IMG/VR virus record: IMGVR_UViG_3300025117_001212 | Source of the DNA: a virus | DNA length: 64,000 nt | Strand: one strand, 5' to 3' | Shown here: positions 2,009-22,698 of the stretch, piece after piece | Layout of the letters: the number at the start of each line of letters is the position of its first letter | Numbering within the stretch: position 1 is the stretch's first letter | Made by a program: the position numbers and the translations under genes | The notes under the pieces: model-generated | What the model saw: the letters and a program-made list of their open reading frames with translations, nothing else | The model's database searches: none | What the model was told of the DNA's origin: nothing

Positions 2009-2035
2009 TTTTTAATCTTCTTTAAAACTTCTACA

Positions 2036-2808: not shown

Positions 2809-2832
2809 CTGTTATCACCTCCTTATAGTCTT

Positions 2833-3045: not shown

Positions 3046-3088
3046 TAGAAGAAGACCTCAAACATTAAAGAACAAGAATATAAAGTTA

Positions 3089-3280: not shown

Positions 3281-3531
3281 TCTATAATCTCTATTGCTTC
3301 ATCTGTATTTTTATCTAAAAATACAAAACATGAAGAAACTTCATTTTTTATAGTGTCTTTCATGATGAAGTCTATTGTTTTAGATTCATAATCAATTTTA
3401 TAGATTTCAACTACTTTGCTACATATTGGAGCACAATCACATTTACTTATTCTAGTAGATTCACCTCTGCATTTAGTGATTCTAATCTTAGTTCCTATTT
3501 TATAGGTTTTTCTAAGTGTATAGAGATTCAT
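3277..3531 (-). CDS. MNxY-family protein, Cys-insert subfamily
   Basis: MNLYTLRKTYKIGTKIRITKC ... CDCAPIC ... EAIEIIE. Confidence 0.85.
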   Translation of the reverse strand: MNLYTLRKTYKIGTKIRITKCRGESTRISKCDCAPICSKVVEIYKIDYESKTIDFIMKDTIKNEVSSCFVFLDKNTDEAIEIIE

Positions 3532-3569
3532 AAGAATGATCTCAAATATTAAAGAACAAGAATATAAAG

Positions 3570-3767
3570 TTATAGTTTTTTATCAATTTCACAATGGCTC
3601 AACCACCAACCTTCAATTGTACGGGCATAGATAGAATTATATCTCCGTTCTCTAATCTTTTTAATAGTCTGAATTTTTGGTGGATTGTTATTGTAGTTAG
3701 ATATAAATTCATCACTGGCCTCTACTTTATCTCCTGGTTTGAGTCTTTTGAAACAGTAGAGATTCAT
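3570..3767 (-). CDS. MNxY-family small SH3/KOW-like protein
   Basis: MNLYCFKRLKPGDKVEASDEF ... WWLSHCEI. Confidence 0.85.
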   Translation of the reverse strand: MNLYCFKRLKPGDKVEASDEFISNYNNNPPKIQTIKKIRERRYNSIYARTIEGWWLSHCEIDKKL

Positions 3768-4018
3768 TATTAAAGACCTCAGTGTGGTATAGATTGGTAA
3801 TAGATTAAAGGGTTGATAAATGAAATGAGTCGATAGGTTAACGATAGAAAAGATACAAGGGGTCTGACCGTCATTTCTAAGTCATTTTTTAAGTAATTTC
3901 TTATATCTTTATAGCCCATTCTCAAACCCTTCAACCTTCATGCTTCTCACAATCTAACAACTAATCTAACACCCTCCACTACTGGTATTATACACTACTA
4001 TGGCTGTTACTATTACAA

Positions 4019-4246
4019 TTATTTCTTATCTTGCTTATCTTCAAGTGTTCCGAATTTTATTGTTATGGTTGAAGGCACAGGTTTATCTTTTGAAAGATAG
4101 GCATGATCCCTAGAAAGAAGGATATCTTTCAGGTCAACATTGAGTGAGTATTTGTGGTAACTCTTTGTATCTTGAAGGAAGGTTGCCGTTACAGTAACAT
4201 TAAGGTGTTCACTTGTGCTCTGAGATGATCTTGATTTTTTAGACAT
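4019..4246 (-). CDS. hypothetical small beta-strand protein
   Basis: SD AAGGAG; not an MNxY member. Confidence 0.7.
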   Translation of the reverse strand: MSKKSRSSQSTSEHLNVTVTATFLQDTKSYHKYSLNVDLKDILLSRDHAYLSKDKPVPSTITIKFGTLEDKQDKK

Positions 4247-4388
4247 GGTATTCTCCTTTGCTTGTTAGTGTGTGTAAATTATTACCACATTTACTCGGTT
4301 CGATTGAGAATATTGAAAGAAAAGTCTTGAAAAAAGTCGATGAACGTAATTGTTACAAAGATAAGGAATGATAGGTGTTATCTATTAA

Positions 4389-4586
4389 TTATTTCTTTGT
4401 AGGGTAAGGAATTTTTCTGAGTATTTCATCAGGGTGAATACACCATCCTTGACGTGTTAGGATACCACTACGCCAGAACTTTTTTACTATCTGTTCTCTG
4501 TGATGGATATTCCATTCTCTCATAGTTTCATCAGTGAGTTCTATGATATCTCCTGGCTTAAGTCTTCTGAAGCAATAGAAATTCAT
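4389..4586 (-). CDS. MNxY-family small SH3/KOW-like protein
   Basis: MNFYCFRRLKPGDIIEL ... IHPDEILRKI. Confidence 0.85.
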   Translation of the reverse strand: MNFYCFRRLKPGDIIELTDETMREWNIHHREQIVKKFWRSGILTRQGWCIHPDEILRKIPYPTKK

Positions 4587-4798
4587 TTGATTCTCTTATA
4601 GTGTTTAAGATTTGAATAAGGAACGCCAATTAAATAATTACTATTATCACTTCTTAATAGAATTAAATGTTTACGACTGGTATTATATCCATCAACAATC
4701 CAAACATTATAGTGTTTCTTATATCCCTTATGATTGTTGAAATTTCTAATTAACTTAGTTCCTATTGGATATTTTTTCTTCAGTGTATACAAGTTCAC
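4583..4798 (-). CDS. MNxY-family small SH3/KOW-like protein
   Basis: MNLYTLKKKYPIGTKL. Confidence 0.85.
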   Translation of the reverse strand: MNLYTLKKKYPIGTKLIRNFNNHKGYKKHYNVWIVDGYNTSRKHLILLRSDNSNYLIGVPYSNLKHYKRIK

Positions 4799-4911
4799 TA
4801 GTATCTCCTAAATCGTGGTGATTAACAAAAGTTTCCCCTGGGGTAAAACACCTTTTTTAATCATTGCAACTACAATAGTGTGAAACCTTATAAACTATAT
4901 AGCTAAGATAT

Positions 4912-4941
4912 AATATATCATGCTTTTCTACTACACTTCAA
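4912..4941 (-). promoter_or_regulatory. putative sigma70 promoter flanked by two palindromic operator-like sites
   Basis: TTGAAG-N18-TATATT; palindromes at 4831-4849 and 4956-4973. Confidence 0.45.
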
Positions 4942-5058
4942 AAACTTTAAAGGTGGTTTACCCCAAGGTAAACTTAGGACTTTTTTAAGTGTGACTAATT
5001 TAGAGTATGCTATATTGAGTATAAAAATATGAATCCTGTATTTTGTAGTGTCTCTTAA

Positions 5059-5274
5059 TTATGTGATTTGCTTTTTGATATATTTGAGATGAACATGTAT
5101 TTCATTTTCAGTGTATACACCCCTCCAAAATTCTTCAATCATCACAGATTTCACAATCATTGTTCTTTTAGATTTTGAAACAGGATCTTTAACTTTATGA
5201 ACCTCTGAGAAATATGATTTATTAACAAGAATTCTATTTCCTTTCTTAAGTTTTTTTAATTCTGAAAATTTCAT
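5059..5274 (-). CDS. SH3/KOW-like protein related to the MNxY family (variant N-terminus)
   Basis: MKFSELKKLKKGNRILV ... VHLKYIKKQI. Confidence 0.75.
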   Translation of the reverse strand: MKFSELKKLKKGNRILVNKSYFSEVHKVKDPVSKSKRTMIVKSVMIEEFWRGVYTENEIHVHLKYIKKQIT

Positions 5275-5477
5275 GATTCTTCTATTTTACATTCAACATT
5301 AGATATATGAGTGAGTTTTGGATTTCTAGTTTCGCTATCACTTGTTACTATCCATAATTTACTATTACCCCAACGCTTCTTCACAACTTGGATTGTAGAA
5401 CAATCTCTATGATCCATTCCTTCGCGAAGTCTAATTCTATCTCCTGGTTTCAATTTATTGAAAGTATATAGATTCAT
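5271..5477 (-). CDS. MNxY-family small SH3/KOW-like protein
   Basis: MNLYTFNKLKPGDRIRL. Confidence 0.85.
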   Translation of the reverse strand: MNLYTFNKLKPGDRIRLREGMDHRDCSTIQVVKKRWGNSKLWIVTSDSETRNPKLTHISNVECKIEES

Positions 5478-5483
5478 GTCAAT

Positions 5484-5577
5484 TTAACTACTACCATTAG
5501 CCCTTTGAAAGCAATATATATTCATCTCAATAACCCATTTAACCCTCGCTATTAGCCCTTTGAAAACATATATTCAT
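5484..5577 (-). pseudogene. two tandem N-terminus-only MNxY remnants (mini-ORFs)
   Basis: MNICFQRANSEG* (5539-5577) and MNIYCFQRANGSS* (5484-5525); direct repeat ATTAGCCCTTTGAAA. Confidence 0.6.
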
Positions 5578-5777
5578 TTTTCTATCTTACAGATTATTGC
5601 TACTCTTGGGACATTCAAAGGTTCTTTATTTCTTGAATTAACAATAAATGTTTTTATCCAATCACTGTCTGTGGTTACTGCTTCTACTACTTCACATTCC
5701 ATTGGAGTTTTTCTCATTGGAAAATCAATAAGAATTCTATCACCTACTTTCAATTTTTTGAATGTATATAGATTCAT
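5574..5777 (-). CDS. MNxY-family small SH3/KOW-like protein
   Basis: MNLYTFKKLKVGDRILI. Confidence 0.85.
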   Translation of the reverse strand: MNLYTFKKLKVGDRILIDFPMRKTPMECEVVEAVTTDSDWIKTFIVNSRNKEPLNVPRVAIICKIEK

Positions 5778-6009
5778 TCTACAAACTCAAATTCATCTTC
5801 ATATCTAGCTTGGCAAACCCTCGAAGTGCAACTGTTAATAAAATTAATTTCATATTCATTTCTATTACTATTAAATTTTAGTTCTACAATTTCATGTGTT
5901 TCGCTAAGACAACGGTTATGACAAGGAGAATCTGCCTTACATGCTTACATGCGATCATCTTTAGTTTCTTACAGGTTACAGCTCCTTTTTTGAAAGTATA
6001 TAAATTCAT
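5774..6009 (-). pseudogene. frameshifted MNxY-family member, Cys-insert subfamily
   Basis: MNLYTFKK... switches frame near TGTAAGCATGTAAGGCA into ADSPCHNRCLSETHEIVE...EDEFEFVE*; span 236 nt, not a multiple of 3. Confidence 0.65.
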
Positions 6010-6203
6010 TTTTCTATCTTTCTAACGATTTGATAAGGTAAAACATATAGCCCATAATCAATATCCGCACAATCGTTCCCAGATGAATCTTTTCGTAATT
6101 TTATTATGGTAATTCTTTCAGGAAGAAATAATCCTTTAAATAAATTGTCGGCTATTTCTATTTCATCACCTACTTTCAATTTACGAAAACAGTATAAATT
6201 CAT
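6006..6203 (-). CDS. MNxY-family small SH3/KOW-like protein
   Basis: MNLYCFRKLKVGDEIEI. Confidence 0.85.
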   Translation of the reverse strand: MNLYCFRKLKVGDEIEIADNLFKGLFLPERITIIKLRKDSSGNDCADIDYGLYVLPYQIVRKIEK

Positions 6204-6256
6204 GATATTTCAGATCCTCTTACGACTAGTCTTGGAATAGTAGTAAGGGCAAACTA

Positions 6257-6445
6257 TTACCGGAAATATTTTGAATTACCATCTAAGAGATCTAGAATTT
6301 CTTTTGAAAAAACCTGTTCATGTTCCTCTTCATCTAATAAATCAAAAACAGTTTCTACTATCACCATAATTTCTTCTGGTGAAAGTTTTTCTTTTAGAGT
6401 TTTTGCAAGTTCATTACGACCTTTTTCCCAACTGTATTTATTCAT
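6257..6445 (-). CDS. MNxY-start protein with a helical, non-SH3 body
   Basis: MNKYSWEKGRNELAKTLKE. Confidence 0.7.
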   Translation of the reverse strand: MNKYSWEKGRNELAKTLKEKLSPEEIMVIVETVFDLLDEEEHEQVFSKEILDLLDGNSKYFR

Positions 6446-6511
6446 CTCACACCCACATAAAACTCTGACTAAAGGAAATAAAAAACTTTGATATCCTGAT
6501 GGAATAAAGTC

Positions 6512-6542
6512 AAAAAAAGGGAGGGTCTTGGTGACCCTCCCT
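6512..6542 (-). terminator. intrinsic terminator
   Basis: 10-bp stem AGGGAGGGTC/GACCCTCCCT then T-run on minus strand, right after the stop at 6551. Confidence 0.85.
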
Positions 6543-6550
6543 GAAGTTGG

Positions 6551-7162
6551 TTACGCTGAGGCTTCTGCTGCGACCTGAGCGAGAGCCTTGCGGACCGGTG
6601 TCCTCTTCAGTTCGGTGGCCTTCCTCTTAGCAACGATCTTTTCCACTGTCTTCTTGGAGACCTTTCCCTTGGCTTCCTTGACAACCTCACCGACCCTCTT
6701 GGCGGCGGCGGCTTTCCTCATGTTCCAGCCAGCCTCAGCCTCACGCCCCTTGTAGATCTCAGCGTAGTAGTCCTTCGTGGACTTCGGGTCCTTCACGCGG
6801 TCCTCGAGCATCGCCAGGGTCACCTTGTTGAGTGGAACCGAGGAGAGGTAATCGTAGTGATTGCCCGGATGCTTGAACAGGCGCTCACGATTCTTTCCGG
6901 TGCCGGTGAACATTGGACGGCTGATGATCATGTCGCCGCCACGCCTGGCCGAGAACAGGACGTCCCCGTTTCGCTTCACCTGAAGGGCTCCCCACGAGTT
7001 CTCCACGAGGCTCAGATCCGAATGCTTCTTCAGGATGGCCGAGAACATATTCCGAATGGTTTTATTCTCGTGCTGGTTGTCGCCTCTCTTGATCTTGGCG
7101 GCACATCCGACTTTCACGACTTCCTTCTTGACATCTTTTTTCGTAGACTTTTTCTTAGACAT
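6551..7162 (-). CDS. basic Lys/Ala-rich putative nucleic-acid-binding protein
   Basis: SD GGAGG before MSKKKSTKK (7162); histone-H1-like K/A-rich tail; GC-richer codons; own terminator. Confidence 0.75.
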   Translation of the reverse strand: MSKKKSTKKDVKKEVVKVGCAAKIKRGDNQHENKTIRNMFSAILKKHSDLSLVENSWGALQVKRNGDVLFSARRGGDMIISRPMFTGTGKNRERLFKHPGNHYDYLSSVPLNKVTLAMLEDRVKDPKSTKDYYAEIYKGREAEAGWNMRKAAAAKRVGEVVKEAKGKVSKKTVEKIVAKRKATELKRTPVRKALAQVAAEASA

Positions 7163-7524
7163 GATATATCCTCCCGCTTGGACTTCTGAATGGTTCGCAT
7201 TTCTTTGATGACTTTTACCGAATCGGGTTTCCATCCGTTCTTAAGGAGAGCGCGAACCATCCTCTCCCTTAGTTCGGCCTTCGGCATTTTCCTGCCATAG
7301 GCTTTCACAAATTCTTGGCAGGCCTCCTCTACATCTACATCCAACTGTTCGGCCATCTTGACCTTGGACCATTCAACCCAGAATCCCACTTCACCTTCCC
7401 GATATGTGATATCCTGGATATCTACTGTTCCAGATGACCTCCCGAACATCCTGAACCATCCGCCGAATTGCTTCAGTGCCATTTCAACGGCTAGTGTGGG
7501 ACTCGGGAAATCTGACACTCTCAT
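7114..7524 (-). CDS. hypothetical protein
   Basis: SD GAGGAGG; promoter at 7552-7580. Confidence 0.65.
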   Translation of the reverse strand: MRVSDFPSPTLAVEMALKQFGGWFRMFGRSSGTVDIQDITYREGEVGFWVEWSKVKMAEQLDVDVEEACQEFVKAYGRKMPKAELRERMVRALLKNGWKPDSVKVIKEMRTIQKSKREDISCLRKSLRKKMSRRKS

Positions 7525-7551
7525 CACCTCCTCTACTGTATTATTATTCCC

Positions 7552-7580
7552 ACTATAACACGTCGAGCTTGCCGATGCAA
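7552..7580 (-). promoter_or_regulatory. sigma70-type promoter
   Basis: TTGCAT-N17-TATAGT, extended -10 TG. Confidence 0.75.
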
Positions 7581-7588
7581 GTAAATAA

Positions 7589-7771
7589 TTAGGCTTTCTT
7601 GCGACCCCTTTTTACTGAGGGTACTGACCTGAACGGATACTGATTTCTGAACATTTCCCTTTCTAGGTTCTCAACTTCATCCATCCGAATCTGATGGCCT
7701 TCCTGGCCAAGTCCAGTTTTGAGCATCCGGTTGACCAGTGTATTCCACTTCTTTGTGCTCTTTGAAATCAT
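7589..7771 (-). CDS. hypothetical small basic protein
   Basis: SD AAGGAGG; promoter 7817-7845. Confidence 0.7.
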   Translation of the reverse strand: MISKSTKKWNTLVNRMLKTGLGQEGHQIRMDEVENLEREMFRNQYPFRSVPSVKRGRKKA

Positions 7772-7816
7772 GAGACCTCCTTATGTCCTAAGTCCCTGTT
7801 ATATTGTTACGGGTAC

Positions 7817-7845
7817 AGTATAACATGGCGAGGGCTCCGATGCAA
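7817..7845 (-). promoter_or_regulatory. sigma70-type promoter (sister of 7552-7580)
   Basis: TTGCAT-N17-TATACT; both share TTGCATCGG...TGTTATA. Confidence 0.75.
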
Positions 7846-8063
7846 GCAAAAAATGCAATGTTTCGTTTTTGGTGATTGTTGTGAATGGCGTGATTAGATT
7901 CATGGACTTCGGTAGGTTCAGCGAGTTCGCAAATCCGCGCGTGAAATGGAAGATCATGAAATCGCGAGTATAGAGCGAGAGCAGTCTACACCGTGTCGGA
8001 ATGTTAAAGCATATTCTAATTTAGACTAAAGATTAGTAATTAGAGTTGACTGGTTTATGATGG

Positions 8064-8288
8064 TTACAGAAACTCTACAAATTTAAGTTTTATAATATAT
8101 TCCTCATTATCACTTGAATCTATGAATTCTATTACATTACACATCCTTCTATTACTGTAATAAGCATCTTTTACAATATAGATTCCGGGCCAAATATTTG
8201 AATAAGTACCTATAGTCCCTGGTCTATTAGCTAAATTTTTCATTTTGAATTGTTTACCTATGTATCTCCTGAGTTGATATAGATTCAT
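8064..8288 (-). CDS. MNxY-family small protein
   Basis: MNLYQLRRYIGKQFKM. Confidence 0.8.
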   Translation of the reverse strand: MNLYQLRRYIGKQFKMKNLANRPGTIGTYSNIWPGIYIVKDAYYSNRRMCNVIEFIDSSDNEEYIIKLKFVEFL

Positions 8289-8300
8289 TTTATAATCTCT

Positions 8301-8522
8301 TTAAGGTTTCTTAATAATTGTTACGTCTTTAGGGAATGCATAAAAGTCTGGAGTTTCGCTAGGATCATTTTCGTATGTTAGCCCAAGATCAAGTTCCCCA
8401 GGGCTATTGTCTAGATTATGTTCAATAATAATCCATCGATCAATCTCTTCGCCTTCGTCGGCAAAATCAACAATGGTGCCAATTGGATACTCAAGCATTA
8501 ATTTCTTTATTTCTTCCTTCAT
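8301..8522 (-). CDS. SH3/KOW-like protein related to the MNxY family
   Basis: EYPIGTIVDF ... FPKDVTII, lacks MNxY. Confidence 0.75.
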   Translation of the reverse strand: MKEEIKKLMLEYPIGTIVDFADEGEEIDRWIIIEHNLDNSPGELDLGLTYENDPSETPDFYAFPKDVTIIKKP

Positions 8523-8737
8523 TTTATTACCTCCAAATCTTCAAAGTCACATGTTACTTCACACTCTGCATATTCACCCTCAATCCAAAAACTCGGTCCA
8601 TTTCGAGTTGAAATATCACCGATTTCTACAATAGACCCAACACAGTCATTTCGTAGACCACAGTTTTTGTTATCACATCTAAGTAGTTTAACTTTCATTC
8701 CATCTTTAAATGTCTTTTTAAATGTGTATAGATTCAT
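8519..8737 (-). CDS. MNxY-family protein, Cys-insert subfamily
   Basis: true start MNLYTFKKTFKDGMKV at 8737; CDNKNC...C; FEDLEVIK. Confidence 0.85.
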   Translation of the reverse strand: MNLYTFKKTFKDGMKVKLLRCDNKNCGLRNDCVGSIVEIGDISTRNGPSFWIEGEYAECEVTCDFEDLEVIK

Positions 8738-8943
8738 TTTACTTTTACTATCACCCCGTCTTTCATTGTTACTTGAGCATACCATGTGTGAGGTTTAGGA
8801 TAGTGTGGACCTTCAACGAATTCAATTCCATTGTCTTTGGTTGGAAATATTCCTGAGTGGTTATAGATAGAAATCTTCCTACCTTGAACCACAGCTTCTT
8901 TCAACGCTTTCTTTGTTTTGAAATCAACACTCGTGTATGCCAT
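8734..8943 (-). CDS. conserved phage hypothetical protein
   Basis: FKTKKALKEAV ... EGPHYPKPHTWYA ... GVIVKVK; SD GAGGAGG. Confidence 0.75.
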   Translation of the reverse strand: MAYTSVDFKTKKALKEAVVQGRKISIYNHSGIFPTKDNGIEFVEGPHYPKPHTWYAQVTMKDGVIVKVK

Positions 8944-8945
8944 AA

Positions 8946-9242
8946 TCATTCCTCCTCTATAAGATATGAAACACCATTGTTATATAGCCATTTGTAACTA
9001 ATCCTTCTACGCTCTATTTCTTCTTTGATTTTCTTACGAGTCCATTTAGTAAATCTTTTTAGATCTAGTTTAAGAATTTCAATGTTCTTATTTCGGATAT
9101 GACTAGGAGAAGTATATCCATAATAATGTGAAATTGCATCACCCCATCCATCATTAGCTTCGTTTTCAATTTTTAGAAAAAGACCTACTACTTCGCCCAA
9201 TTGCATTTTATGAAATCTTTTTGTCTGGTTATACTTATCCAT
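8946..9242 (-). CDS. hypothetical protein (MDKY variant start)
   Basis: coupled to upstream stop, SD GAGGAGGTGAT. Confidence 0.7.
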   Translation of the reverse strand: MDKYNQTKRFHKMQLGEVVGLFLKIENEANDGWGDAISHYYGYTSPSHIRNKNIEILKLDLKRFTKWTRKKIKEEIERRRISYKWLYNNGVSYLIEEE

Positions 9243-9471
9243 TTATCACCTCCTCAATTTCTTCTAATTTAAATGAGTAATTAAGTTCATCAAGGTCATT
9301 TATATTTCCTTTAATCAATGATATGAATACCTTATTATCTTCCGAAACTAAAACCTCTGTTATGGTTAACACTTCTTTAGATGTTATTTCTTCATAAATT
9401 ATTCCGGCTTCTTTTTTGATTCTTACTTTAACTCCTGGTTTCAATATTTTTCTTGCAATATAATTATTCAT
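9235..9471 (-). CDS. MNxY-family small SH3/KOW-like protein
   Basis: MNNYIARKILKPGVKVRI ... LEEIEEVI. Confidence 0.85.
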   Translation of the reverse strand: MNNYIARKILKPGVKVRIKKEAGIIYEEITSKEVLTITEVLVSEDNKVFISLIKGNINDLDELNYSFKLEEIEEVING

Positions 9472-9673
9472 TTACTACCTCCAAATGATCTATATGCCAT
9501 CGTTCTTCATCATATTTTCCACCACATAAAATTACATGATCAACTTCTTTTAAGAATGATTTAACTACATATACATCTGATAGATCCATTTTGTTATAAA
9601 GACCTCTGAATTTTTTTGTCGGTGTTACTTTAGTTCCTGGTCTAAACAATTTTATCTTAACATATTCATTCAT
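9464..9673 (-). CDS. MNxY-family small SH3/KOW-like protein
   Basis: true start MNEYVKIKLFRPGTKV at 9673; HIDHLEVV. Confidence 0.8.
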   Translation of the reverse strand: MNEYVKIKLFRPGTKVTPTKKFRGLYNKMDLSDVYVVKSFLKEVDHVILCGGKYDEERWHIDHLEVVNE

Positions 9674-9714
9674 AGTTTGTATTGGGGAGTTTGTTGTCCT
9701 CCCCAATCTCCTTT

Positions 9715-10440
9715 TTAGACGGTTTGTGGTTTCAGTTTCTTTAGCATGACTTCTTTTTTCTTCATGCTCTTTTCTGTTTCCTTGAGCGCTTTGAGTTCAG
9801 CCTCAAGCCTTACCCTTCTCTGTTCAATTGTTTCAAGTGTTTTCGTCCTACGAGTTGCCTTCAGTTCAGCAGCCCACTGAGCGTTGGACTTTTTGTCCTT
9901 CAACGCTCTTCTTAGTGCTACTTCCATTTCAGGTTCACTGTGCCTGAGTATGGTTACGTGTGGATAACCACCAACCTCAGGACGCCCAACCTTGATCACA
10001 CTGTAAGGGCTGTAGATACACACATCACCAGCTCTTACTGCTACCTTGAGGCCATCAGCCCTGACTGCTTGAAGTGCTCCGGGCTTGTGCTGAATGTCTC
10101 TCTTAGGTTGAATCCTCTGGACACGAATGCCCATCTCCTTACATACTCTCATAAGGAGAGCCTCTGCCTTCTGCCTTGGAGACAGATCCTTGTTCATGAT
10201 GTCACCTCCCTTCGATTTTTCATTGCTCTTTTTTGGCCCAACTTTCCTCTTTTTTGGACCAACTTTGGACGTTTTTGACTCAACTTTCGCTGTTTTTGAA
10301 TCAGTTTCATCAATTTCTTGCACCAATTGGTCCACCATAGACTGTTTCTCCATCATTTCACCCTCCATTTCGGTTGCTAAAGAGTTAACTGCACTTGAAA
10401 TCACACCATTGCCAACACTCTTTTTCATAATCTCTACCAT
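9715..10440 (-). CDS. basic putative nucleic-acid-binding protein, distant paralog of 6551-7162
   Basis: shares GALQ..R....R.GD..I..P and KDxKS...AE; start uncertain (internal SD before ATG 10197); C-terminal coiled coil. Confidence 0.7.
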   Translation of the reverse strand: MVEIMKKSVGNGVISSAVNSLATEMEGEMMEKQSMVDQLVQEIDETDSKTAKVESKTSKVGPKKRKVGPKKSNEKSKGGDIMNKDLSPRQKAEALLMRVCKEMGIRVQRIQPKRDIQHKPGALQAVRADGLKVAVRAGDVCIYSPYSVIKVGRPEVGGYPHVTILRHSEPEMEVALRRALKDKKSNAQWAAELKATRRTKTLETIEQRRVRLEAELKALKETEKSMKKKEVMLKKLKPQTV

Positions 10441-10655
10441 TTTCTTTCTCCTTTATCCCATATTTTACCAATATTATGAAGAAAGTGATTAAGTTCATAA
10501 TGCCCATAACGTTCACCATTATCTAAAGATATGTGGACTAAAATGGTTTTTAATTGGTCACTATAGGTGTAATTAGTTATGGTTAATTTGTTAAAAAGAT
10601 GTGAGCTAAATATGGTTCCAATCGGATATTCTTTTTTCAGTGTATACATGTTCAT
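10434..10655 (-). CDS. MNxY-family small SH3/KOW-like protein
   Basis: MNMYTLKKEYPIGTIF. Confidence 0.85.
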   Translation of the reverse strand: MNMYTLKKEYPIGTIFSSHLFNKLTITNYTYSDQLKTILVHISLDNGERYGHYELNHFLHNIGKIWDKGERKW

Positions 10656-10873
10656 AATTTATAGAAATCCCCATTGTTATATTCTTCTGAAAATTTTCTA
10701 AGAGTCCTTAACATTACTCGTTTACCATTTATTAGGCTATTTAACTTTAGCCCAAATACTATGTTATTGTTAAAGTGTGAATATAGGATTTCAGATATAA
10801 AAACTTCTCCATGATTTTGATGATAGATTCTAGTTCCTACTTTAAATTCTTTGTTAAAGGTATACTGGTTCAA
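10652..10873 (-). CDS. MNxY-family small SH3/KOW-like protein (TTG start)
   Basis: GGAGGTGATAAAT-TTG AAC CAG TAT; NQYTFNKEFKVGTRI. Confidence 0.8.
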   Translation of the reverse strand: MNQYTFNKEFKVGTRIYHQNHGEVFISEILYSHFNNNIVFGLKLNSLINGKRVMLRTLRKFSEEYNNGDFYKL

Positions 10874-10920
10874 ATTTATCACCTCCAATCTTGAGGGGGT
10901 GAAAGCCCCTCGGTTATATG

Positions 10921-11928
10921 TTAATAATCTGATTGTTTTTCCATGAACTCTTTCAAAGCAGCATTGCTGTCATGCCATCCATACACCATGTCCCTTTCTT
11001 CCTCATCTGTTTTCTGTTCCACAATTAACTTAACAACCTGATATCTGATCTCTTCAGACAGGTCCATGATGAATGCCAGATAGTTTGTTTTGTACGTTTT
11101 CTCCAACCTCTTGGCTGCAATTTCAGAACCAAGAGCCAGTTGAAGCTGCTTATCCTTAATTACTTCATCCCTTACCCCGGCGTACCTCTTTAACACATCA
11201 TCGACTGTTATCACCTTCCTCTCCATGAGGTGTTCGATAAAATGCCGTGCTGCTATGCCCAAACAACCATTAGCAACCATCCTAACACCCTCAATTCCAT
11301 CAATCTTTAAGACGTTACTCATCTTAACCCATTGTCTTGGGCACGCTTGCCCGTACACCAACATCACTTCGTTTTTCCTTATGAATCTGATTACTTGTTC
11401 ATGTACCTTGTTTTCAACTGCCCAATCAAGCCAGTCCTGTGCCTTGTGAATGACACTGAATATCGAGTATCTCCGTGTGGTTGCTAGATCCACAAACGGA
11501 TCATCAGTGTCACCATAGTCCTGAGTTGGAGGGTTCATTGCAACAACATTCTGGATTTTGCCACTGAGCTTTGTACCATAAATCATGTTCTCGTTTATGG
11601 CACTCATTAATGCGTTACGTAAATCCCCACGGGCTCTGCTGAATTCATCATAGAACACCACAGTTGGCCTCTTGATATCAAAGATAGCATTCAGCCTGAA
11701 CTTTACAAAGTTGCCATCATCTCTGATTGCGCCAAAATCTTCCACAAATAGAGTTGCACAATTCAACTCAACCAGATCCATCTTTCGATCATTAGCATAA
11801 GCCCTGATCTGTTGAGTCTTACCAATGCCTGACTCTCCCTCAAATACTGGAGTCATACCAGCATTGGCACACATGTCCATTGCCTTCACCATTTCCTTTA
11901 CCGTAACCAAACTCTTGTAAAGTTCCAT
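10921..11928 (-). CDS. MoxR-type AAA+ ATPase
   Basis: Walker A GESGIGKT, Walker B VVFYDEFSR, VVAMNP sensor, RRY arginine finger. Confidence 0.9.
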   Translation of the reverse strand: MELYKSLVTVKEMVKAMDMCANAGMTPVFEGESGIGKTQQIRAYANDRKMDLVELNCATLFVEDFGAIRDDGNFVKFRLNAIFDIKRPTVVFYDEFSRARGDLRNALMSAINENMIYGTKLSGKIQNVVAMNPPTQDYGDTDDPFVDLATTRRYSIFSVIHKAQDWLDWAVENKVHEQVIRFIRKNEVMLVYGQACPRQWVKMSNVLKIDGIEGVRMVANGCLGIAARHFIEHLMERKVITVDDVLKRYAGVRDEVIKDKQLQLALGSEIAAKRLEKTYKTNYLAFIMDLSEEIRYQVVKLIVEQKTDEEERDMVYGWHDSNAALKEFMEKQSDY

Positions 11929-11946
11929 AATCATTTCCTCCCTTTC

Positions 11947-13083
11947 TTATTTAAGGTGAATGACATTGCCGAACTTCGGCTTGAATTCTTTGTTCTCAAT
12001 AATGCCCCACAAGACCTGCTTTGCCGTGGTCTTGTCCGGGTAGTCGCAATACCCGTCTGTTAGAATTGCAATGTTAGTAAACCTCATTTCCTCTGCTAAT
12101 TTGAATGCGTCGTGAAATACCGTGCCACCTCCTCCCGTCACCTTAGACAAGTGACCTTTGAACCAGAATTTTTCATGCACCTGAGCATCCGTTACTGCCA
12201 CAAATATTTTGCAGTATTCAGACAGACTGTGCAAAGTTCCAGCAAATACGTTGAGTTGTTGCTGTGTAATTGATCCTGATGAATCCAGGATAAGGAAGAT
12301 CCTGGCCATCATTCTCCTTACTTTGCCTCTAAATGTTGGATTTCTACGATTAGCATACGCCCATGTTTTCTTGATCCCTTTGTTGCCATCAGGATCAACC
12401 ATGTTACGCATCATCTTTTCCATCATTTGGAAGTTGATACCACGTTCACGATTCAATGCCCTCAATAAATCACCAGGCATTGCTCCTGCCAACTGGCCGA
12501 TCCTATTCATCACCTCTTGCATTTCGTGTTCTTCAAGAGGTTTGCCTTTGATGGTATCAATGAATTTAAAGTTTACTTTTTCGCCATTTTTAATCATTTG
12601 CATTAGTTCTTCTAATGTTATTTCTTTAAGATTAGGAAGTTTTGTATTTCCTTCTAGTGCATGATAGTAGAACTCTGTTGTTTTATCTGGATCTACTTTC
12701 CATACTTCTGCTGTTTGTCTTTCCTTTGCTATTTTATCTGGAATTTGAATACAACAATTCAGGGCTATGTCTTGTGCAACATTTGCCCTTTCACTATCAG
12801 CAAACAGAACAGAATGGAATCTGTTAGTTAGATGCCCCAACAGTACATGCCATAGTTCATGTTTGACTTCATACTGGAGGACATCTAGTGGTTCATCTAC
12901 CATGTCCTCATTGACAAAGATTTGAAATCTACCATTTCCTTTATGATAGACACAAGCATAGGCTCCTGAAAGCCTTGCCCAATCTACATCACACGCCGAA
13001 CCTAAAGCGCATGTGTAGAATGGCTCCCATTGATCAGCAATAGATGCCCTCAGAGCAATCATTGCCTTTGTTTTCTTGTCCAT
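11947..13083 (-). CDS. putative metallopeptidase + vWA domain protein (DUF2201-like MoxR partner)
   Basis: HELWH zincin motif; MIDAS LILDSSGSI, GGGGT, ILTDG. Confidence 0.9.
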   Translation of the reverse strand: MDKKTKAMIALRASIADQWEPFYTCALGSACDVDWARLSGAYACVYHKGNGRFQIFVNEDMVDEPLDVLQYEVKHELWHVLLGHLTNRFHSVLFADSERANVAQDIALNCCIQIPDKIAKERQTAEVWKVDPDKTTEFYYHALEGNTKLPNLKEITLEELMQMIKNGEKVNFKFIDTIKGKPLEEHEMQEVMNRIGQLAGAMPGDLLRALNRERGINFQMMEKMMRNMVDPDGNKGIKKTWAYANRRNPTFRGKVRRMMARIFLILDSSGSITQQQLNVFAGTLHSLSEYCKIFVAVTDAQVHEKFWFKGHLSKVTGGGGTVFHDAFKLAEEMRFTNIAILTDGYCDYPDKTTAKQVLWGIIENKEFKPKFGNVIHLK

Positions 13084-13107
13084 AATACCCTCCTAAGTTA
13101 ATGGTTT

Positions 13108-13137
13108 ACTATACCATAGGCTAAATGTTAATTGCAA
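13108..13137 (-). promoter_or_regulatory. sigma70-type promoter of the vWA/MoxR operon
   Basis: TTGCAA-N18-TATAGT, extended -10 TG. Confidence 0.7.
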
Positions 13138-13203
13138 GGTTAAAAATACAGTTATCTGGCACTAAAAGGCGGGCCTCTAATGCATTGCATGGTTGTCATC
13201 TCC

Positions 13204-13551
13204 TTACCAGCCTCTAAGTTTTTTCATAAATTTTTCTAATAGTTTTTCATATTTATAAATATCAAAGTGAAATACATGATTGCAGTTTGGACATTTGATT
13301 TTAGGTGCATCCATTACAATCTCTACATCATTAATATTAACTTCCTCATCGTAAAAACCACCATCAATTGGATCTATTTGAAGTAACTTAGAATCAACAC
13401 CCCTGTGTGATCTAGATTCATATACTTTTTTAACATCTAATAAATCATCTTTGGATAATCGCCCATACGTTTGGGTCAGCCTCACAATTGTTCCAAATCT
13501 AAGTTTACCTTTTAATTCTTTCATTAACTCCTTGCTTGTATATTTATTCAT
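13204..13551 (-). CDS. MNxY-family protein with C-terminal CPNC extension
   Basis: MNKYTSKELMKELKGKLRFGTIVRL ... INDVEIV ... CPNC. Confidence 0.8.
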   Translation of the reverse strand: MNKYTSKELMKELKGKLRFGTIVRLTQTYGRLSKDDLLDVKKVYESRSHRGVDSKLLQIDPIDGGFYDEEVNINDVEIVMDAPKIKCPNCNHVFHFDIYKYEKLLEKFMKKLRGW

Positions 13552-13561
13552 TTGTCACCTC

Positions 13562-13804
13562 CTAGTTAGTAAGTTTAGTAAGTGTGGTTTTAGGATAGTT
13601 AGTGAATATTTTATAATCAAATGTTGTTCTTGTCTCTTTATCGTAAATATTAGTAGCTAATGTTATATTTTTATTTTTAGGATCATTATTTACAACTACA
13701 TACACAATTGAGTGAGTATATGGATCTCCATTGAAATCATTAAGTTCATCAGTTACCTTTACGATGTTTGCTTTCTTAAGTTTTTGTAGTGAATAGAGGT
13801 TCAT
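13562..13804 (-). CDS. MNxY-family small SH3/KOW-like protein
   Basis: MNLYSLQKLKKANIVKV; SD GGAGGTGA. Confidence 0.8.
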   Translation of the reverse strand: MNLYSLQKLKKANIVKVTDELNDFNGDPYTHSIVYVVVNNDPKNKNITLATNIYDKETRTTFDYKIFTNYPKTTLTKLTN

Positions 13805-13807
13805 CTG

Positions 13808-13990
13808 TCACCTCCTAGAAGTCATATATCTTAGTTTACCAATTACCATATGAAATGAACTCTTCCTATCTAAGATTGTGCTGTGAATTGCAAGTGTCCA
13901 GCGTTTCCCATTCTTATAAATCACATTCGGGTATTTTATGATTTTAGTTAACTTGGTTACATTGTCATACTCGAAGAACTTAATGTTCAA
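13808..13990 (-). CDS. hypothetical protein
   Basis: TTG start overlapping upstream stop. Confidence 0.55.
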   Translation of the reverse strand: MNIKFFEYDNVTKLTKIIKYPNVIYKNGKRWTLAIHSTILDRKSSFHMVIGKLRYMTSRR

Positions 13991-14274
13991 GCTCTTGCGC
14001 CATTGAATTTGCTAACCAGTTCGTTTACCTTCAATTCCATGGCTTTCTTTTCAGCCATCGGCCTGAATCCTCTCTTGTCGATCCGAATGATGGTTCCGGT
14101 CTTGACGATCTTCACCGTCACCATAGTTCCGACGATTCTCATCACCTCTACCTTAACAGCACCCCTTCCAGTACGAAGGGCTTCCTCATCCACTCTGTGG
14201 CTAAGATGTGCCATGCGAATCTGACCAACGCGAAGGTCACTACCATCCGAACGACCAAACGTCAAATTTCCCAT
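13987..14274 (-). CDS. basic SH3-like hypothetical protein
   Basis: LRVGQI ... VKVEVMRIVGTMVTVKIV; SD AAGGAG; GC-richer codons. Confidence 0.7.
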   Translation of the reverse strand: MGNLTFGRSDGSDLRVGQIRMAHLSHRVDEEALRTGRGAVKVEVMRIVGTMVTVKIVKTGTIIRIDKRGFRPMAEKKAMELKVNELVSKFNGARA

Positions 14275-14286
14275 TGTATTTCTCCT

Positions 14287-14421
14287 TTATGAAAGATTTA
14301 TACCAGAATTAACCATCCACATTAAGATTGTTTGGTTATCAATTAATTGAGTTACAGGATAATAGAATACTCCGTTCCGCATGGGTGGACCTCGAATAGT
14401 TACTTGCTGATTATTCCACAT
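14287..14421 (-). CDS. small hypothetical protein, 44 aa (not in ORF track)
   Basis: SD AAGGAGGTGAT; MWNNQQVTIRGPPMRNG. Confidence 0.55.
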   Translation of the reverse strand: MWNNQQVTIRGPPMRNGVFYYPVTQLIDNQTILMWMVNSGINLS

Positions 14422-14437
14422 ATATCACCTCCTTCAA

Positions 14438-14653
14438 CTAGATCTTGTTTGACTTCCAAGCATCAAAGATATTGGAAGCGATTCCTTTGTCATAAGTCCT
14501 GAACAATGACCATCTATGATTGCAGAGGTTTTCCAACTTTGTAGGATCAATGTCTGAGTAGAATACGGCAAATCCTACCGTGATCTGAGCAAAGTAGACA
14601 CGCCCAGAATCCCCTCTCAGTTCTGTTGAATCAATAACTTTCACAACCTTCAT
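14438..14653 (-). CDS. hypothetical protein
   Basis: SD GAGGTGA. Confidence 0.7.
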   Translation of the reverse strand: MKVVKVIDSTELRGDSGRVYFAQITVGFAVFYSDIDPTKLENLCNHRWSLFRTYDKGIASNIFDAWKSNKI

Positions 14654-14661
14654 TTGTCACC

Positions 14662-14877
14662 TCACCTTTTGATAATAAATTCTTTTCTAAGTGAATTATA
14701 TTTATACCTCACCACCAGGCTCTTAGTTTCAAATGAAATGAACTTTTTTACAAAATCATTTGAAAGAACCTTTGCCACTTCTGGCGCTTGATAGTCAGGT
14801 GATTCTTTTTGTTCAATTAAATCTGTTAATTGAACAAAATCTCCTCTTTTTAATCGGCTTAATGTATACAAGTTCAT
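14662..14877 (-). CDS. MNxY-family small SH3/KOW-like protein
   Basis: MNLYTLSRLKRGDFVQL. Confidence 0.85.
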   Translation of the reverse strand: MNLYTLSRLKRGDFVQLTDLIEQKESPDYQAPEVAKVLSNDFVKKFISFETKSLVVRYKYNSLRKEFIIKR

Positions 14878-14886
14878 TTCACCCTC

Positions 14887-15030
14887 CTAATAATCAAGGT
14901 TGGCATCTTTCAAAAAAGCCTTGACAGTGAAGTACACAGCCACAGGGAAAATCTTAATCATTCTGTAAATAATCCTGCAAAGAATGAAAACACACCCGCA
15001 AACACAAAAGAACACTGCCATACTCTTCAT
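14887..15030 (-). CDS. small membrane protein, 47 aa
   Basis: SD AGGAG before MKSMAVFFCVCGCVFILC; hydrophobic. Confidence 0.55.
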   Translation of the reverse strand: MKSMAVFFCVCGCVFILCRIIYRMIKIFPVAVYFTVKAFLKDANLDY

Positions 15031-15103
15031 ATCATATCTCCTATCTTTCAAAAGGGTTATGATGATCTGGTTAATTGAGCATCTATATTGTTTATCATGT
15101 TTG

Positions 15104-15277
15104 TCACCTCCCTTCGGCTCTTTGCCAGTCCTCATAAGAACGGAACCCGAAATGCACAACTTCCCCTTCAATCCTCACAACCACTGGCACTCCAAAGGCC
15201 GTCCTCTGTGGCCCTTCACCTGAGCATCCAAACCAGCCTAACGTATCACGCCATACCCAAAATAATCTCTTTTTCAT
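15104..15277 (-). CDS. small hypothetical protein, 57 aa (not in ORF track)
   Basis: SD AGGAG; MKKRLFWVWRDTLGWFGC. Confidence 0.6.
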   Translation of the reverse strand: MKKRLFWVWRDTLGWFGCSGEGPQRTAFGVPVVVRIEGEVVHFGFRSYEDWQRAEGR

Positions 15278-15350
15278 AATATTCTCCTATTCTTTGTTAA
15301 AGGTTATGATTATCTAGTTAATAGTGCATCTACAAGTTAGTAATAGTTAA

Positions 15351-15542
15351 TTAAATGATTCCAAGAATCTTAGCAATTTTGATTACTTGAACATTAGTTG
15401 CTCTAGTTCCAATAGCATGTTCACAGGTGACCCGAATACCATAAAGTGTATGACTGTTAATTGACTTAGCAACTTTAGCAAGCCGTTCATCAACAAGCTG
15501 ACTTGCTTTCTCAAAAATAGCCAATGTTTCTTTCTTAGTCAT
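15351..15542 (-). CDS. hypothetical protein
   Basis: SD GGAGGTGA. Confidence 0.65.
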   Translation of the reverse strand: MTKKETLAIFEKASQLVDERLAKVAKSINSHTLYGIRVTCEHAIGTRATNVQVIKIAKILGII

Positions 15543-15799
15543 TACTCTGTCACCTCCTTCCTGCGCCTTCTCCTGATCACATCACCAATGCGTGTGATGT
15601 CGCACTTGAGCGACCTTTCCTTGCGCTCCAACTCCAACACCAACTCCAGGCTCTCAGTGAGCCCTTTGTCAATATTGTTGATATTGGGTTTCTTCTGTCC
15701 AACGGACCTGGACACAGCACCCTTGTTGTTAACATCACCGGCTTTCATTCTGCCGGTGAATCCGAAATAGACACTTCTCAAACCTTCGTTTCCTATCAT
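15542..15799 (-). CDS. hypothetical basic protein
   Basis: coupled ORF, GC-richer codons. Confidence 0.6.
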   Translation of the reverse strand: MIGNEGLRSVYFGFTGRMKAGDVNNKGAVSRSVGQKKPNINNIDKGLTESLELVLELERKERSLKCDITRIGDVIRRRRRKEVTE

Positions 15800-15957
15800 G
15801 TTAATTTTCTCCCATAGATTAAAAGATTAGACAAGTAGGTTAGAATTGAGGCTAGACGTTTGGCTGTGAGTTTACTGAAACCAAGGTCAATAATTCTACA
15901 ATAGATGTGAAGTGGATTGACACGGTGCATTATACTTCCAATCACCGGTCGTCCCAT
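15796..15957 (-). CDS. small hypothetical protein, 53 aa (not in ORF track)
   Basis: SD GGAGGTGA; stop overlaps next ATG. Confidence 0.55.
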   Translation of the reverse strand: MGRPVIGSIMHRVNPLHIYCRIIDLGFSKLTAKRLASILTYLSNLLIYGRKLT

Positions 15958-15974
15958 ACATGTCACCTCCCTCC

Positions 15975-16130
15975 CTATGCGGTCAGGCGCAACCCCTCCA
16001 GTATAGCCGGAGTAACCCTATCCCAAGGGCCTCTGACCTGAATGTGACCCAAATAGAGAGCCACTACAAAGTAGCCCTCAAGCGTTTGGTATATATTGAA
16101 TCCCCTATCACACTCAAACATTGGTCTCAT
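15975..16130 (-). CDS. small hypothetical protein, 51 aa (not in ORF track)
   Basis: SD AGGA; MRPMFECDRGFNIYQT. Confidence 0.55.
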   Translation of the reverse strand: MRPMFECDRGFNIYQTLEGYFVVALYLGHIQVRGPWDRVTPAILEGLRLTA

Positions 16131-16213
16131 AATTATTCCTTTCTTTTGTTAAATTGTTATGTTGATAAGTTAACACTAAGGCATCTACATTGTTGAGTTG
16201 TTAATCATTTTTA

Positions 16214-16390
16214 TCACCTCCCTAGTACGAACATTATGATTGCCCACATATGAGCAACCGCACCAAAGGTTGAAAAGAACAACACAATTCCTCCTATTAC
16301 CCTGCTTCCTCTGATGATGTCATGCAAACCCCACACCATAGCAAATAGAAACATCACTAACGACACGAACGGTAATACATCCCACCACAT
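16214..16390 (-). CDS. small two-TM membrane protein, 58 aa (not in ORF track)
   Basis: SD GGAGGTGAT; MWWDVLPFVSLVMFLFAMVWG...VIGGIVLFFSTFGAVAH. Confidence 0.65.
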   Translation of the reverse strand: MWWDVLPFVSLVMFLFAMVWGLHDIIRGSRVIGGIVLFFSTFGAVAHMWAIIMFVLGR

Positions 16391-16544
16391 GTTATCACCT
16401 CCATTGTTAGATTGTCACACATTAGGTTATCACCACAGTTAGATTGTTATGTTGTTATTTGACTTCACTAATCACCCCCTACCCCATGTTATTTTGGGCG
16501 TAAGGCACTATTACTTGTTATGACCACCCGATGAATTAGTCGAT

Positions 16545-20002: not shown

Positions 20003-20175
20003 TTTATTATCTCTATTTCATCAATAGGAAGTAATACGTATATTCCCTCAACCACAACTCCCAATATTTTATTTTCGTGTTTATATATTCCCATTATACG
20101 CCTAATGGTTTTATCTTTTATGAGTATAACTGATTTTCCTAACTGAATATATTTATCTAATGTGTACTTATTCAT
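19999..20175 (-). CDS. MNxY-family protein, 58 aa (not in ORF track)
   Basis: MNKYTLDKYIQLGKSV ... LPIDEIEIIK. Confidence 0.8.
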   Translation of the reverse strand: MNKYTLDKYIQLGKSVILIKDKTIRRIMGIYKHENKILGVVVEGIYVLLPIDEIEIIK

Positions 20176-20191
20176 AATAAATCCTTAATAG

Positions 20192-20326
20192 TCAAAAAAG
20201 AGGCTCTTTGCAAGAATGCTCATCAAGCAGGAGGTGGTAGTGATGAGTTCTATGTCAAAGAGCCTCTTAGGGTCGCAACTGAGAGAAAGGAGGTGAAACC
20301 TCTAGTTGCTACATGTGTACCTTTAC
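20192..20326 (-). ncRNA. candidate small RNA with two anti-Shine-Dalgarno loops
   Basis: promoter 20333-20361; loops UUUCACCUCCUUU and CUACCACCUCCUGCU; 13-bp terminal stem plus U-run. Confidence 0.6.
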
Positions 20327-20332
20327 ACCAAT

Positions 20333-20361
20333 ATTATACAATAAGCAATAAGCAATTGCAA
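20333..20361 (-). promoter_or_regulatory. sigma70-type promoter heading the sRNA and MNxY array
   Basis: TTGCAA-N17-TATAAT. Confidence 0.8.
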
Positions 20362-20771: not shown

Positions 20772-20901
20772 AATCAATTCCTGCTATTTAATTGTTAAAA
20801 ACTTAACTTACTTAGTGATTGTTAAGATTTCAATGATTTTAAGATTCATGTGACAGAAAAAAACAAAGTGTTAGTACCGAATAAAAGAAAGGTTTTTAAT
20901 T

Positions 20902-20956
20902 GCAATGAGCCTCCGGCTCATTGCCTCATGATGCGATCTGAGATCGCATCATGAGG
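20902..20956. repeat. two abutting perfect inverted repeats
   Basis: GCAATGAGCC-TCC-GGCTCATTGC and CCTCATGATGCGATCT-G-AGATCGCATCATGAGG. Confidence 0.9.
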
Positions 20957-21549
20957 ATAGAAAAGACTTCAGATTTAGATACTTTAATTTTAGAAGTGAT
21001 TTAAATTATAGAAAAAAGATCAGAGAGAAGCTTTCTTTGTACTTCCAACCTGCCTCGACCCGAGGTCTCGGCAGACCCCCCCTTCCCCCCACGCCCGAAC
21101 CGCTATGGTTTTTCTTTAGTTCCCTGTAACCGGACTTGGCTTCAATTTGCACGTCCACCGAAGTGCTTTACAGGGTTCTCCGCAGATATCTAAAGAAAAT
21201 TTAAAAGACGATATTAATTTTCGTTTCTAGCACTCTTAAAGAGCTGTCAGCGACATTGATAAGAAACGGTTTAAAAAATATCGTACACAGTCGCTATTTA
21301 ACACGGCCCGAGAAATCGTCTGAATTAACGGACGCCTTCTTAAGTTAGGGAGAAGAGGAGGAATCTATGCACCCCCCTTGGTTTTTCTGATTTAATACTT
21401 CACTAAGAAGCTGTTTTTTCAAGACACTAATCAGAAAACATATGGCTGCATAGAGAGCATCAAGGCTCTAATGTAACCCTTTGATGCTAAACACTAGGTG
21501 GCGTGTTACTTGATATAGAGACGCATTGCTAGTGCTACCCCATACTTTT

Positions 21550-21578
21550 ATTATACAATTAAATTTGTCAAATTGCAT
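21550..21578 (-). promoter_or_regulatory. putative promoter firing into the non-coding structured region
   Basis: ATGCAA-N17-TATAAT. Confidence 0.55.
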
Positions 21579-21869: not shown

Positions 21870-21871
21870 AA

Positions 21872-22571: not shown

Positions 22572-22663
22572 AAATGGAAAGAGCCCCAAGAGGTGGGGAG
22601 TCTCTTGGGGCTCTTAAGGAGGAGAGAAGCATGGCGTCGAAGGAAAACGAAACAACCATCTCT
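22572..22663 (-). ncRNA. candidate small RNA with anti-SD tract and C-rich loop
   Basis: promoter 22670-22698; CUUCUCUCCUCCUU then 14-bp stem with loop ACUCCCCAC. Confidence 0.45.
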
Positions 22664-22669
22664 ACTGAT

Positions 22670-22698
22670 ATTATACAACTGATTATTTAACTTTGCAA
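22670..22698 (-). promoter_or_regulatory. sigma70-type promoter
   Basis: TTGCAA-N17-TATAAT overlapping the exonuclease stop. Confidence 0.75.

Follow-up and report, generated by a model that had tools for sequence, protein, structure and literature searches.

Candidate phage small RNA presenting the 16S rRNA 3'-tail sequence in two hairpin loops ahead of the MNxY gene array of an uncultured groundwater phage

What might a phage do with an ORF-free stretch that lies between a promoter and an intrinsic terminator, carries the anti-Shine-Dalgarno (anti-SD) sequence of the 16S rRNA 3' end in two hairpin loops, and stands directly ahead of a gene array? The question is raised by a minus-strand locus at 20.2 kb in IMG/VR virus record IMGVR_UViG_3300025117_001212, an uncultured groundwater phage with a genome of 114.6 kb, of which the 64,000 nt analysed here (the window) form a part. 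The genome revealed Mu-like portal and head genes, a terminase, a 2479-aa tape measure, gyrase A, an NAD-dependent ligase, and a UvsW-like helicase. The genes left of ~23.65 kb form a minus-strand arm of ~69 kb, with the 20.2-kb element in its first 3.5 kb. Outside the window, the same phage harbors genes for TnpB (OrfB_IS605/Cas12f-like) and for a sigma-70-region-2 protein (L447:9720-10904 and L446:13686-14486); the latter points to the use of a phage sigma factor by later genes, whereas the promoter of the element is of the host type. The following features were assigned to the element and to the gene start behind it:

20356..20361, minus strand: -35 hexamer TTGCAA
20333..20338, minus strand: -10 hexamer TATAAT, preceded by TTG as at the sister promoters
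20315..20328, minus strand: hairpin (i), GUGUA-AAGG-UACAC, with its 5' arm (20328-20324) over the expected start
20275..20309, minus strand: hairpin (ii), 10-11-bp stem interrupted by one bulged C, loop of 12-14 nt, GUUUCACCUCCUUU
20194..20268, minus strand: hairpin (iii), a compound terminator with a 15-nt loop, CUACCACCUCCUGCU, then U6
20173..20186, minus strand: weak Shine-Dalgarno sequence AAGGA and ATG of the first MNxY gene (20175-19999)

The minus-strand promoter TTGCAA-N17-TATAAT, which the sequence-only reading had put at the head of this element, was found where it had been placed, with a spacer of 17 nt between the two hexamers (20361-20333). For its shorter form, TGCAA-N17-TATAAT, the window has three copies where 0.13 are expected, each of them on the minus strand (22697, 21577, and 20360), and the 114.6-kb genome has five, all on that same strand. 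Since two of the copies directly precede ordinary genes, the class is probably functional, and we regard it as a probable working promoter class. No direct-repeat regulator site was visible upstream of the promoter. Transcription would start near 20326, 7 nt past the -10 hexamer, which is the usual distance. No ORF was found between promoter and intrinsic terminator, a short RNA is predicted from the sequence, and the unit has the appearance of a genuine minus-strand RNA bounded by promoter and terminator. A search of sequencing runs with the 20.2-kb stretch found it identical in 11 DNA runs (groundwater, soil) and in no RNA run. Upstream, the stop codon of a DUF488 gene (20388) precedes the element by ~60 nt.

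Folding with RNAfold gave -47.6 kcal/mol for the 20.2-kb RNA (z = -5.2), a stability reached by none of 200 dinucleotide shuffles, and one fold dominates the ensemble. It contains exactly the helices that had been described for hairpins (ii) and (iii), followed by the U-run. Hairpin (iii) consists of an outer stem of 13 bp (20268-20256 / 20210-20198) and an inner stem of 7 bp (20247-20241 / 20225-20219), with T6 at 20199-20194, and this terminator hairpin by itself reached -31.1 kcal/mol (z = -6.5). Hairpin (i) fared differently. Its sequence is present, yet the 5' arm overlaps the expected start at ~20326, so that it is probably truncated in the RNA, and its helix was gone when folding began at 20326; the RNA would then have a length of about 133 nt. 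The plus strand also folds, with the big stem followed there by AGGGUCG and no U-run, which makes the terminator one-directional, acting on the minus strand. Each arm of the outer stem (20198-20268) is at the same time an 11-bp palindrome, AAGAG-G-CTCTT and AAGAG-C-CTCTT, with centres 60 bp apart, and the pair could be DNA sites for a dimeric protein.

Hairpins (ii) and (iii) have unrelated stems, and their loops of 12-15 nt both read CACCUCCU, with CACCUCC at 20295-20289 in loop (ii) and at 20236-20230 in loop (iii). In the partition function, the anti-SD octamer of loop (ii) is unpaired with a probability of 0.86-1.0 and that of loop (iii) with one of 0.72-1.0. The motif as such is frequent in the window, where CACCTCC was counted 28 times against 3.6 expected; 25 of these copies lie opposite the Shine-Dalgarno sites of genes encoded on the other strand. 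This leaves only three copies in sense orientation, and two of the three are the loops of the element, 59 nt apart. The resemblance to the 16S 3' end asserted by the sequence-only reading is borne out: UCACCUCCUUUCU, which runs from loop (ii) into the 3' arm, is identical to 13 bases of GGAUCACCUCCUUUCU, the end of real 16S genes (the ends of such genes served as reference, and the end of the SSU model was confirmed by Rfam in one of them). It is the longest match to the 16S tail on both strands of the phage genome, in which the longest Shine-Dalgarno sites have 11 nt.

Two further sequences of this kind were noticed elsewhere. In rRNA operons of Dehalococcoidia (five loci, chosen by the search pattern, from which no frequency follows), the spacer repeats CCACCUCCUAGGUCG ~60-75 nt past the 16S 3' end, by its letters a second anti-SD-like sequence conserved among those genomes. 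The unrelated viral contig IMGVR_UViG_3300026519_000027 carries three tandem mini-hairpins, CGGCA-CCUCC-UGCCG, on its minus strand (~8142-8259), which is another loop display of CCUCC with a different design.

If the loops pair with ribosome-binding sites, the phage's own genes may be among the partners, and one block of them stands out:

629..16450, minus strand: proposed target block of small genes, 17 of them with a GGAGGUG site, the exact complement of both loops

Coding-strand GGAGG is continued to GGAGGUG in 17 of 38 cases at 0.5-16.45 kb and in 9 of 95 elsewhere (Fisher p = 1.3e-5), and in none of the four GGAGG sites of the RNA-bearing block at 16.45-23.65 kb. The earlier statement that the loop is complementary to the Shine-Dalgarno sequence of many early genes was thus upheld, as GGAGGUG is its exact complement and is enriched in the 0.5-16.4 kb block at this p value. 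On the basis of a rough gene call, the RNA-bearing block averages -3.1 kcal/mol in pairing to the anti-SD, with 13 of its 20 genes weak, versus -8.0 kcal/mol for the next block. On the phage site AAAGGAGGUGA, the loop forms a duplex of -16.9 kcal/mol and the 16S tail one of -17.0 kcal/mol. No single phage gene with extended loop complementarity was found; the matches end at the 10-11 nt of the generic ribosome-binding site.

In general, the 'dialects' of ribosome-binding sites differ between gene blocks (500-23650 on the minus strand, and the whole genome). The bases that follow GGAGG are most commonly UG at 0.5-16.45 kb (17/38) and AA in the replication block, which lies outside the window (10/46).

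Between the element and the left end of the window, 38 small ORFs of 41-115 aa (629-20175, minus strand) start with M-N-x-Y and have no Pfam match. The operon immediately downstream of the 20.2-kb RNA is without GGAGG sites. Directly behind the element come 13 array genes that overlap stop-to-start and lack Shine-Dalgarno sites, and these nearest genes are predicted to be translationally coupled. The ATG of the first of them (20175) lies 19 nt past the U-run of the terminator. A sequence scan found no promoter between the terminator (20194) and this gene, from which it follows that a leader role for the array must hold at least in part. The array has no visible mRNA source other than read-through of the terminator, which would make the element its leader as well. 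The earlier designation as 5' leader of the MNxY array therefore stands to this extent, and a purely cis attenuating role is taken up below as a rival.

Two more promoter-led, ORF-free stretches of the same arm carry CCUCC:

22572..22698, minus strand: sister RNA 2, with the same promoter type, a promoter-to-terminator RNA of ~100 nt without ORF
20800..21577, minus strand: sister RNA 3, with ATGCAA-N17-TATAAT followed by ~750 nt without ORFs

Sister RNA 2 (-37.9 kcal/mol, z = -4.5) displays a single-stranded CUUCUCUCCUCCUU tract and then a 14-bp terminator-like hairpin with the loop ACUCCCCAC; CAU, 8 nt, and CCUCC all lie single-stranded between two hairpins. Sister RNA 3 has a hairpin loop with UUCCUCCUCUUCUCCCU at ~21361 and GCUCUUUAAGA at 21244. 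Within the 23.65-kb arm, all four sense-strand copies of CCUCCU and all three of GCUCUUU fall into the three promoter-led ORF-free RNAs, which together cover ~1 kb; these motif statistics were chosen post hoc, after viewing the data, and are extreme nonetheless. None of the three CCUCC-bearing RNAs stands alone, as each is found at the 5' end of a transcription unit. The bases before CCUCC in the three RNAs are CA, CU, and UU, by which pairing would be extended to GGAGG plus UG, AG, and AA, respectively; among these extensions, statistical support was obtained for UG only.

Apart from that, the region of sister RNA 3 has a high GC content, is structured, contains long G-runs, and gave no Rfam match; the G-runs, GGGGGGUG, are possible pairing partners of the CACCUCCU loops at 20.2 kb. 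On its plus strand, sister RNA 2 matched Clostridiales-2 (RF02937) with 21.9 bits against a gathering threshold of 58.6, which we attribute to chance. True members, compared in 151 Clostridia genomes, have conserved GUGCUCAGG...CCGUCGAAGGGAACC hairpins that are absent from sister RNA 2.

Comparison with other genomes yielded identical copies of the element and nothing diverged. All other copies of the 20.2-kb element were 100% identical (the 11 DNA runs and one ENA contig, the latter 100% identical over 20 kb). Rfam revealed no family for the element, neither in the whole window at gathering score nor at E <= 5 for 20100-22750, and BLASTn against a phage database gave no match. Searches by neighbourhood led no further: the DUF488-N3a neighbour search reached only distant high-GC phages without such an RNA, those with dCTP deaminase and FEN found nothing, and neither the neighbouring proteins nor the MNxY family had close relatives among 5.8 billion proteins, a profile of the MNxY family matching this phage only in the same collection. 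In the nearest phages (terminase identity of 45-53%), no sense-strand CCUCC hairpins or comparable intergenic RNAs were seen in the readable parts of the early arm. Scans for the loop pattern through viral, metagenome, and genome collections (single or paired, with or without T-run, fold-screened) produced no look-alike among the matches listed, all of which proved to be complements of Shine-Dalgarno sites, coding repeats rich in Gly, or true 16S ends. BLAST of the element against three CPR genomes yielded chance matches of 14-15 nt only, and nothing resembling it was seen at their pth loci. In all, no diverged relative of the element was found in the collections searched, for the scan part among the matches listed. 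The sister RNAs amount to a replicate inside one genome and partly offset this absence of relatives.

The reading that we favour, at somewhat less than even confidence, is that of an early phage small RNA which would pair with strong ribosome-binding sites and would also serve, through terminator read-through, as leader of the MNxY array. Host sigma-70-type RNA polymerase would start at TTGCAA-N17-TATAAT and transcribe an RNA of ~133 nt. Termination would be efficient enough for the majority of transcripts to end at the compound hairpin with its U6, and the read-through remainder would become mRNA of the MNxY array, with few Shine-Dalgarno sites and with translational coupling. The free RNA would expose its two CACCUCCU loops, bearing the 16S 3'-tail sequence, and in the cell these would pair with GGAGGUG-type sites, i.e., those of ~17 small genes of the next block and probably those of host messages. 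The expected effect on translation is that such pairing would hinder binding of the 30S subunit. Both sister RNAs, having related pyrimidine tracts, would act likewise. The combination of Shine-Dalgarno-poor genes around the RNAs and a GGAGGUG-rich next block fits a timing or damping of that block, and possibly of host messages. The wider role of a "broad translational repressor or ribosome competitor", put forward by the sequence-only reading, is one that we can only infer. Against action in trans, it counts that one RNA would face dozens of sites and that the MNxY array obligatorily has the 20.2-kb element as its 5' leader. If the favoured reading is true, this phage would possess up to three anti-SD-loop RNAs at the very start of infection, and the gene blocks, which differ sharply in the strength of their ribosome-binding sites, would offer a simple and testable way of connecting RNA-level control with the time at which phage gene classes act, and possibly with host shut-off.

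The best-surviving alternative, though an unlikely one, is a pure cis leader or attenuator, in which the terminator, perhaps itself regulated, sets the entry into the MNxY array, the loops are sites for a factor on the nascent transcript, and nothing acts in trans. The short distance of 19 nt from the terminator to the first array gene, with no promoter between them, agrees with it, as does the position of all three CCUCC-bearing RNAs at the 5' ends of transcription units. No alternative antiterminator pairing is evident, however, one fold dominates the ensemble, and the three RNAs differ in how far the pyrimidine tract stands from the next gene, between ~60 and ~590 nt. That the element sequesters the ribosome-binding site downstream of it in cis was considered separately and rejected as implausible, as the pairing of -4.9 kcal/mol is too weak and the site, only AAGGA, is situated beyond the terminator.

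About half as probable is the absence of any regulatory role, the element being merely the terminator of the upstream DUF488 gene next to a promoter, with loops that arose by accident or are relics of inverted gene starts. No conservation was seen, and the element lies ~60 nt past the DUF488 stop (20388), as this explanation would have it. An accident is nevertheless very unlikely in view of the folding z-scores (-5 to -6.5), the two anti-SD loops at a distance of 59 nt, and the restriction of CCUCCU and GCUCUUU to the three promoter-led RNAs.

A bolder version of the trans reading is just as improbable. In it, a programme of three RNAs from the first promoters would blanket initiation at strong Shine-Dalgarno sites (those of the host and of the GGAGGUG block), with the array of ~15 genes escaping by coupling, or else the tail copies would be decoys that shield ribosomes from a host nuclease cutting the anti-SD. 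Either form, if true, would mean that a virus re-aims or protects the translation start machinery of its host by RNA only.

Slightly below these ranks the idea that the loops mimic the 16S 3' tail in order to titrate a protein recognising it, such as a ribosome-inactivating endoribonuclease of host defence, bS21, S1, or a processing enzyme, with no pairing to mRNA at all. Toxins cutting the anti-SD exist, MazF-mt3 cleaving at UCCUU, and some phages encode bS21; moreover, the 13-nt identity between loop (ii) and the real 16S tail is longer than any Shine-Dalgarno complement in the genome. A gene for such a protein was not found in the annotated parts of the genome, though, and in loop (iii) and the sister RNAs the likeness to the tail is limited to the CCUCC(U) core. 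In addition, the tail sequence is also the best possible generic partner of a ribosome-binding site.

We regard as very unlikely a leader for processive antitermination of the boxA type, in which NusB/NusE bound at GGCUCUUUGACAU would block the terminator and polymerase would read far into the 69-kb early arm. Located in the 5' arm of the terminator, GGCUCUUUGACAU is similar to the boxA of rrn and lambda, UGCUCUUUAACAA. The window has a single copy of GCTCTTTNACA, within the 20.2-kb element, and a copy with one mismatch in sister RNA 3; the three leaders account for every sense-strand GCUCUUU of the arm (3/3), and they are situated in the initial 3.5 kb of an early arm that is long and has few further consensus promoters. 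At +70 of the promoter, GCUCUUUGACA is likewise found once in the window, within the 5' stem arm of the terminator (the boxA consensus used, GCUCUUUAACA, may not be that of the host). This copy at 20.2 kb is maybe a by-product of the near-palindromic arm AAGAG-G-CUCUU, however, GCUCUUU of sister RNA 2 is merely the 3' arm of its terminator plus the U-tract, and the anti-SD loops are left unexplained.

Equally weak is a functional plus strand, either with strong sites driving micro-ORFs (17 codons from 20245; 19 codons in sister element 2) or with the minus-strand RNA as its dedicated antisense: both elements do have GGAGG, 8 nt, and ATG there and the strand folds well too, but no promoter-like site lies upstream, the neighbouring genes are all on the minus strand, as are the consensus promoters (5/5), the terminator works on the minus strand only, the micro-ORF peptides are neither hydrophobic nor alike, an ATG follows any GGAGG at 5-10 nt by chance in ~1/10 of cases, and the weak Clostridiales-2 match of sister element 2 is not homology.

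Anti-SD-loop small RNAs are well documented in bacteria, and a targeted literature search found no description of a phage-encoded one. The closest architecture is that of the cuckoo/alpha-r14 RNAs of Alphaproteobacteria (RSs0680a-d = CcsR, SmelC397 = NfeR1; RF02344), which consist of 2-4 adjacent hairpins with an anti-SD-like motif in loops of 9-27 nt on variable stems and a terminator at the end, and which have been proposed to pair with ribosome-binding sites and hinder 30S binding (PMC4615179). Like them, the 20.2-kb element has two adjacent hairpins with anti-SD loops of 12-15 nt on unrelated stems, a likeness of architecture only. The motif differs, as the loops read CACCUCCU (GUUUCACCUCCUUU, CUACCACCUCCUGCU) instead of CCUCCUCCC, the CCUCC core alone being common, and the RF02344 covariance model gave no match, either in the window at gathering score or at 20100-22750 with E <= 5. 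Furthermore, and unlike cuckoo/alpha-r14, the element is phage-borne, has its own sigma-70-type promoter, uses its second anti-SD hairpin as terminator, and is an operon leader.

The CiaR-dependent csRNAs of Streptococcus have 60-200 nt, with unpaired regions that complement the Shine-Dalgarno sequence and often the start codon of a generic translation initiation region, and have been proposed to block ribosome access (PMC3091779). It is sister RNA 2 that shares their layout, with CAU, 8 nt, and CCUCC single-stranded between hairpins. There is no sequence similarity to csRNAs or to their conserved stretch, however (no Rfam match), and instead of a CiaR-type promoter we found plain TTGCAA-N17-TATAAT. 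The 20.2-kb element itself departs further from this layout in that its anti-SD is located in hairpin loops and not in a linker.

RsaE/RoxS and LhrC of Firmicutes use C-rich loop seed motifs that pair with ribosome-binding sites. Hairpins 7, 13, and 14 of RNAIII, as summarised in PMC4615179, carry redundant pyrimidine seed motifs in their loops, the terminator loop included, and pair with ribosome-binding sites as well. The 20.2-kb RNA resembles these RNAs in repeating a pyrimidine motif in its loops, again including that of the terminator. While the C-rich-loop small RNAs present UCCC or CCCC and gain selectivity through flanking pairs, the 20.2-kb loop comprises the full 16S tail sequence, which would leave little selectivity beyond the strength of the site.

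Among phages, the c4 antisense RNA of P1 and P7 is located at the head of the operon that it controls and pairs by its loops with a ribosome-binding site downstream in the same transcript. The 20.2-kb element, too, is a phage RNA at an operon head. c4 is cut from its transcript and addresses specific sites in one operon, however, whereas complementarity of the 20.2-kb loops is generic and the next operon lacks GGAGG. The T4 RegB endoribonuclease shuts down a class of the phage's own early messages via GGAG Shine-Dalgarno sequences, which is the regulatory logic proposed here for the 20.2-kb RNA, RegB being a protein nuclease. Altogether, the failure of the covariance models and motif tests places the element outside every known family, and we tentatively conclude, with a little less than an even chance of being right, that it would act like the known anti-SD-loop small RNAs as a member of none of their families.
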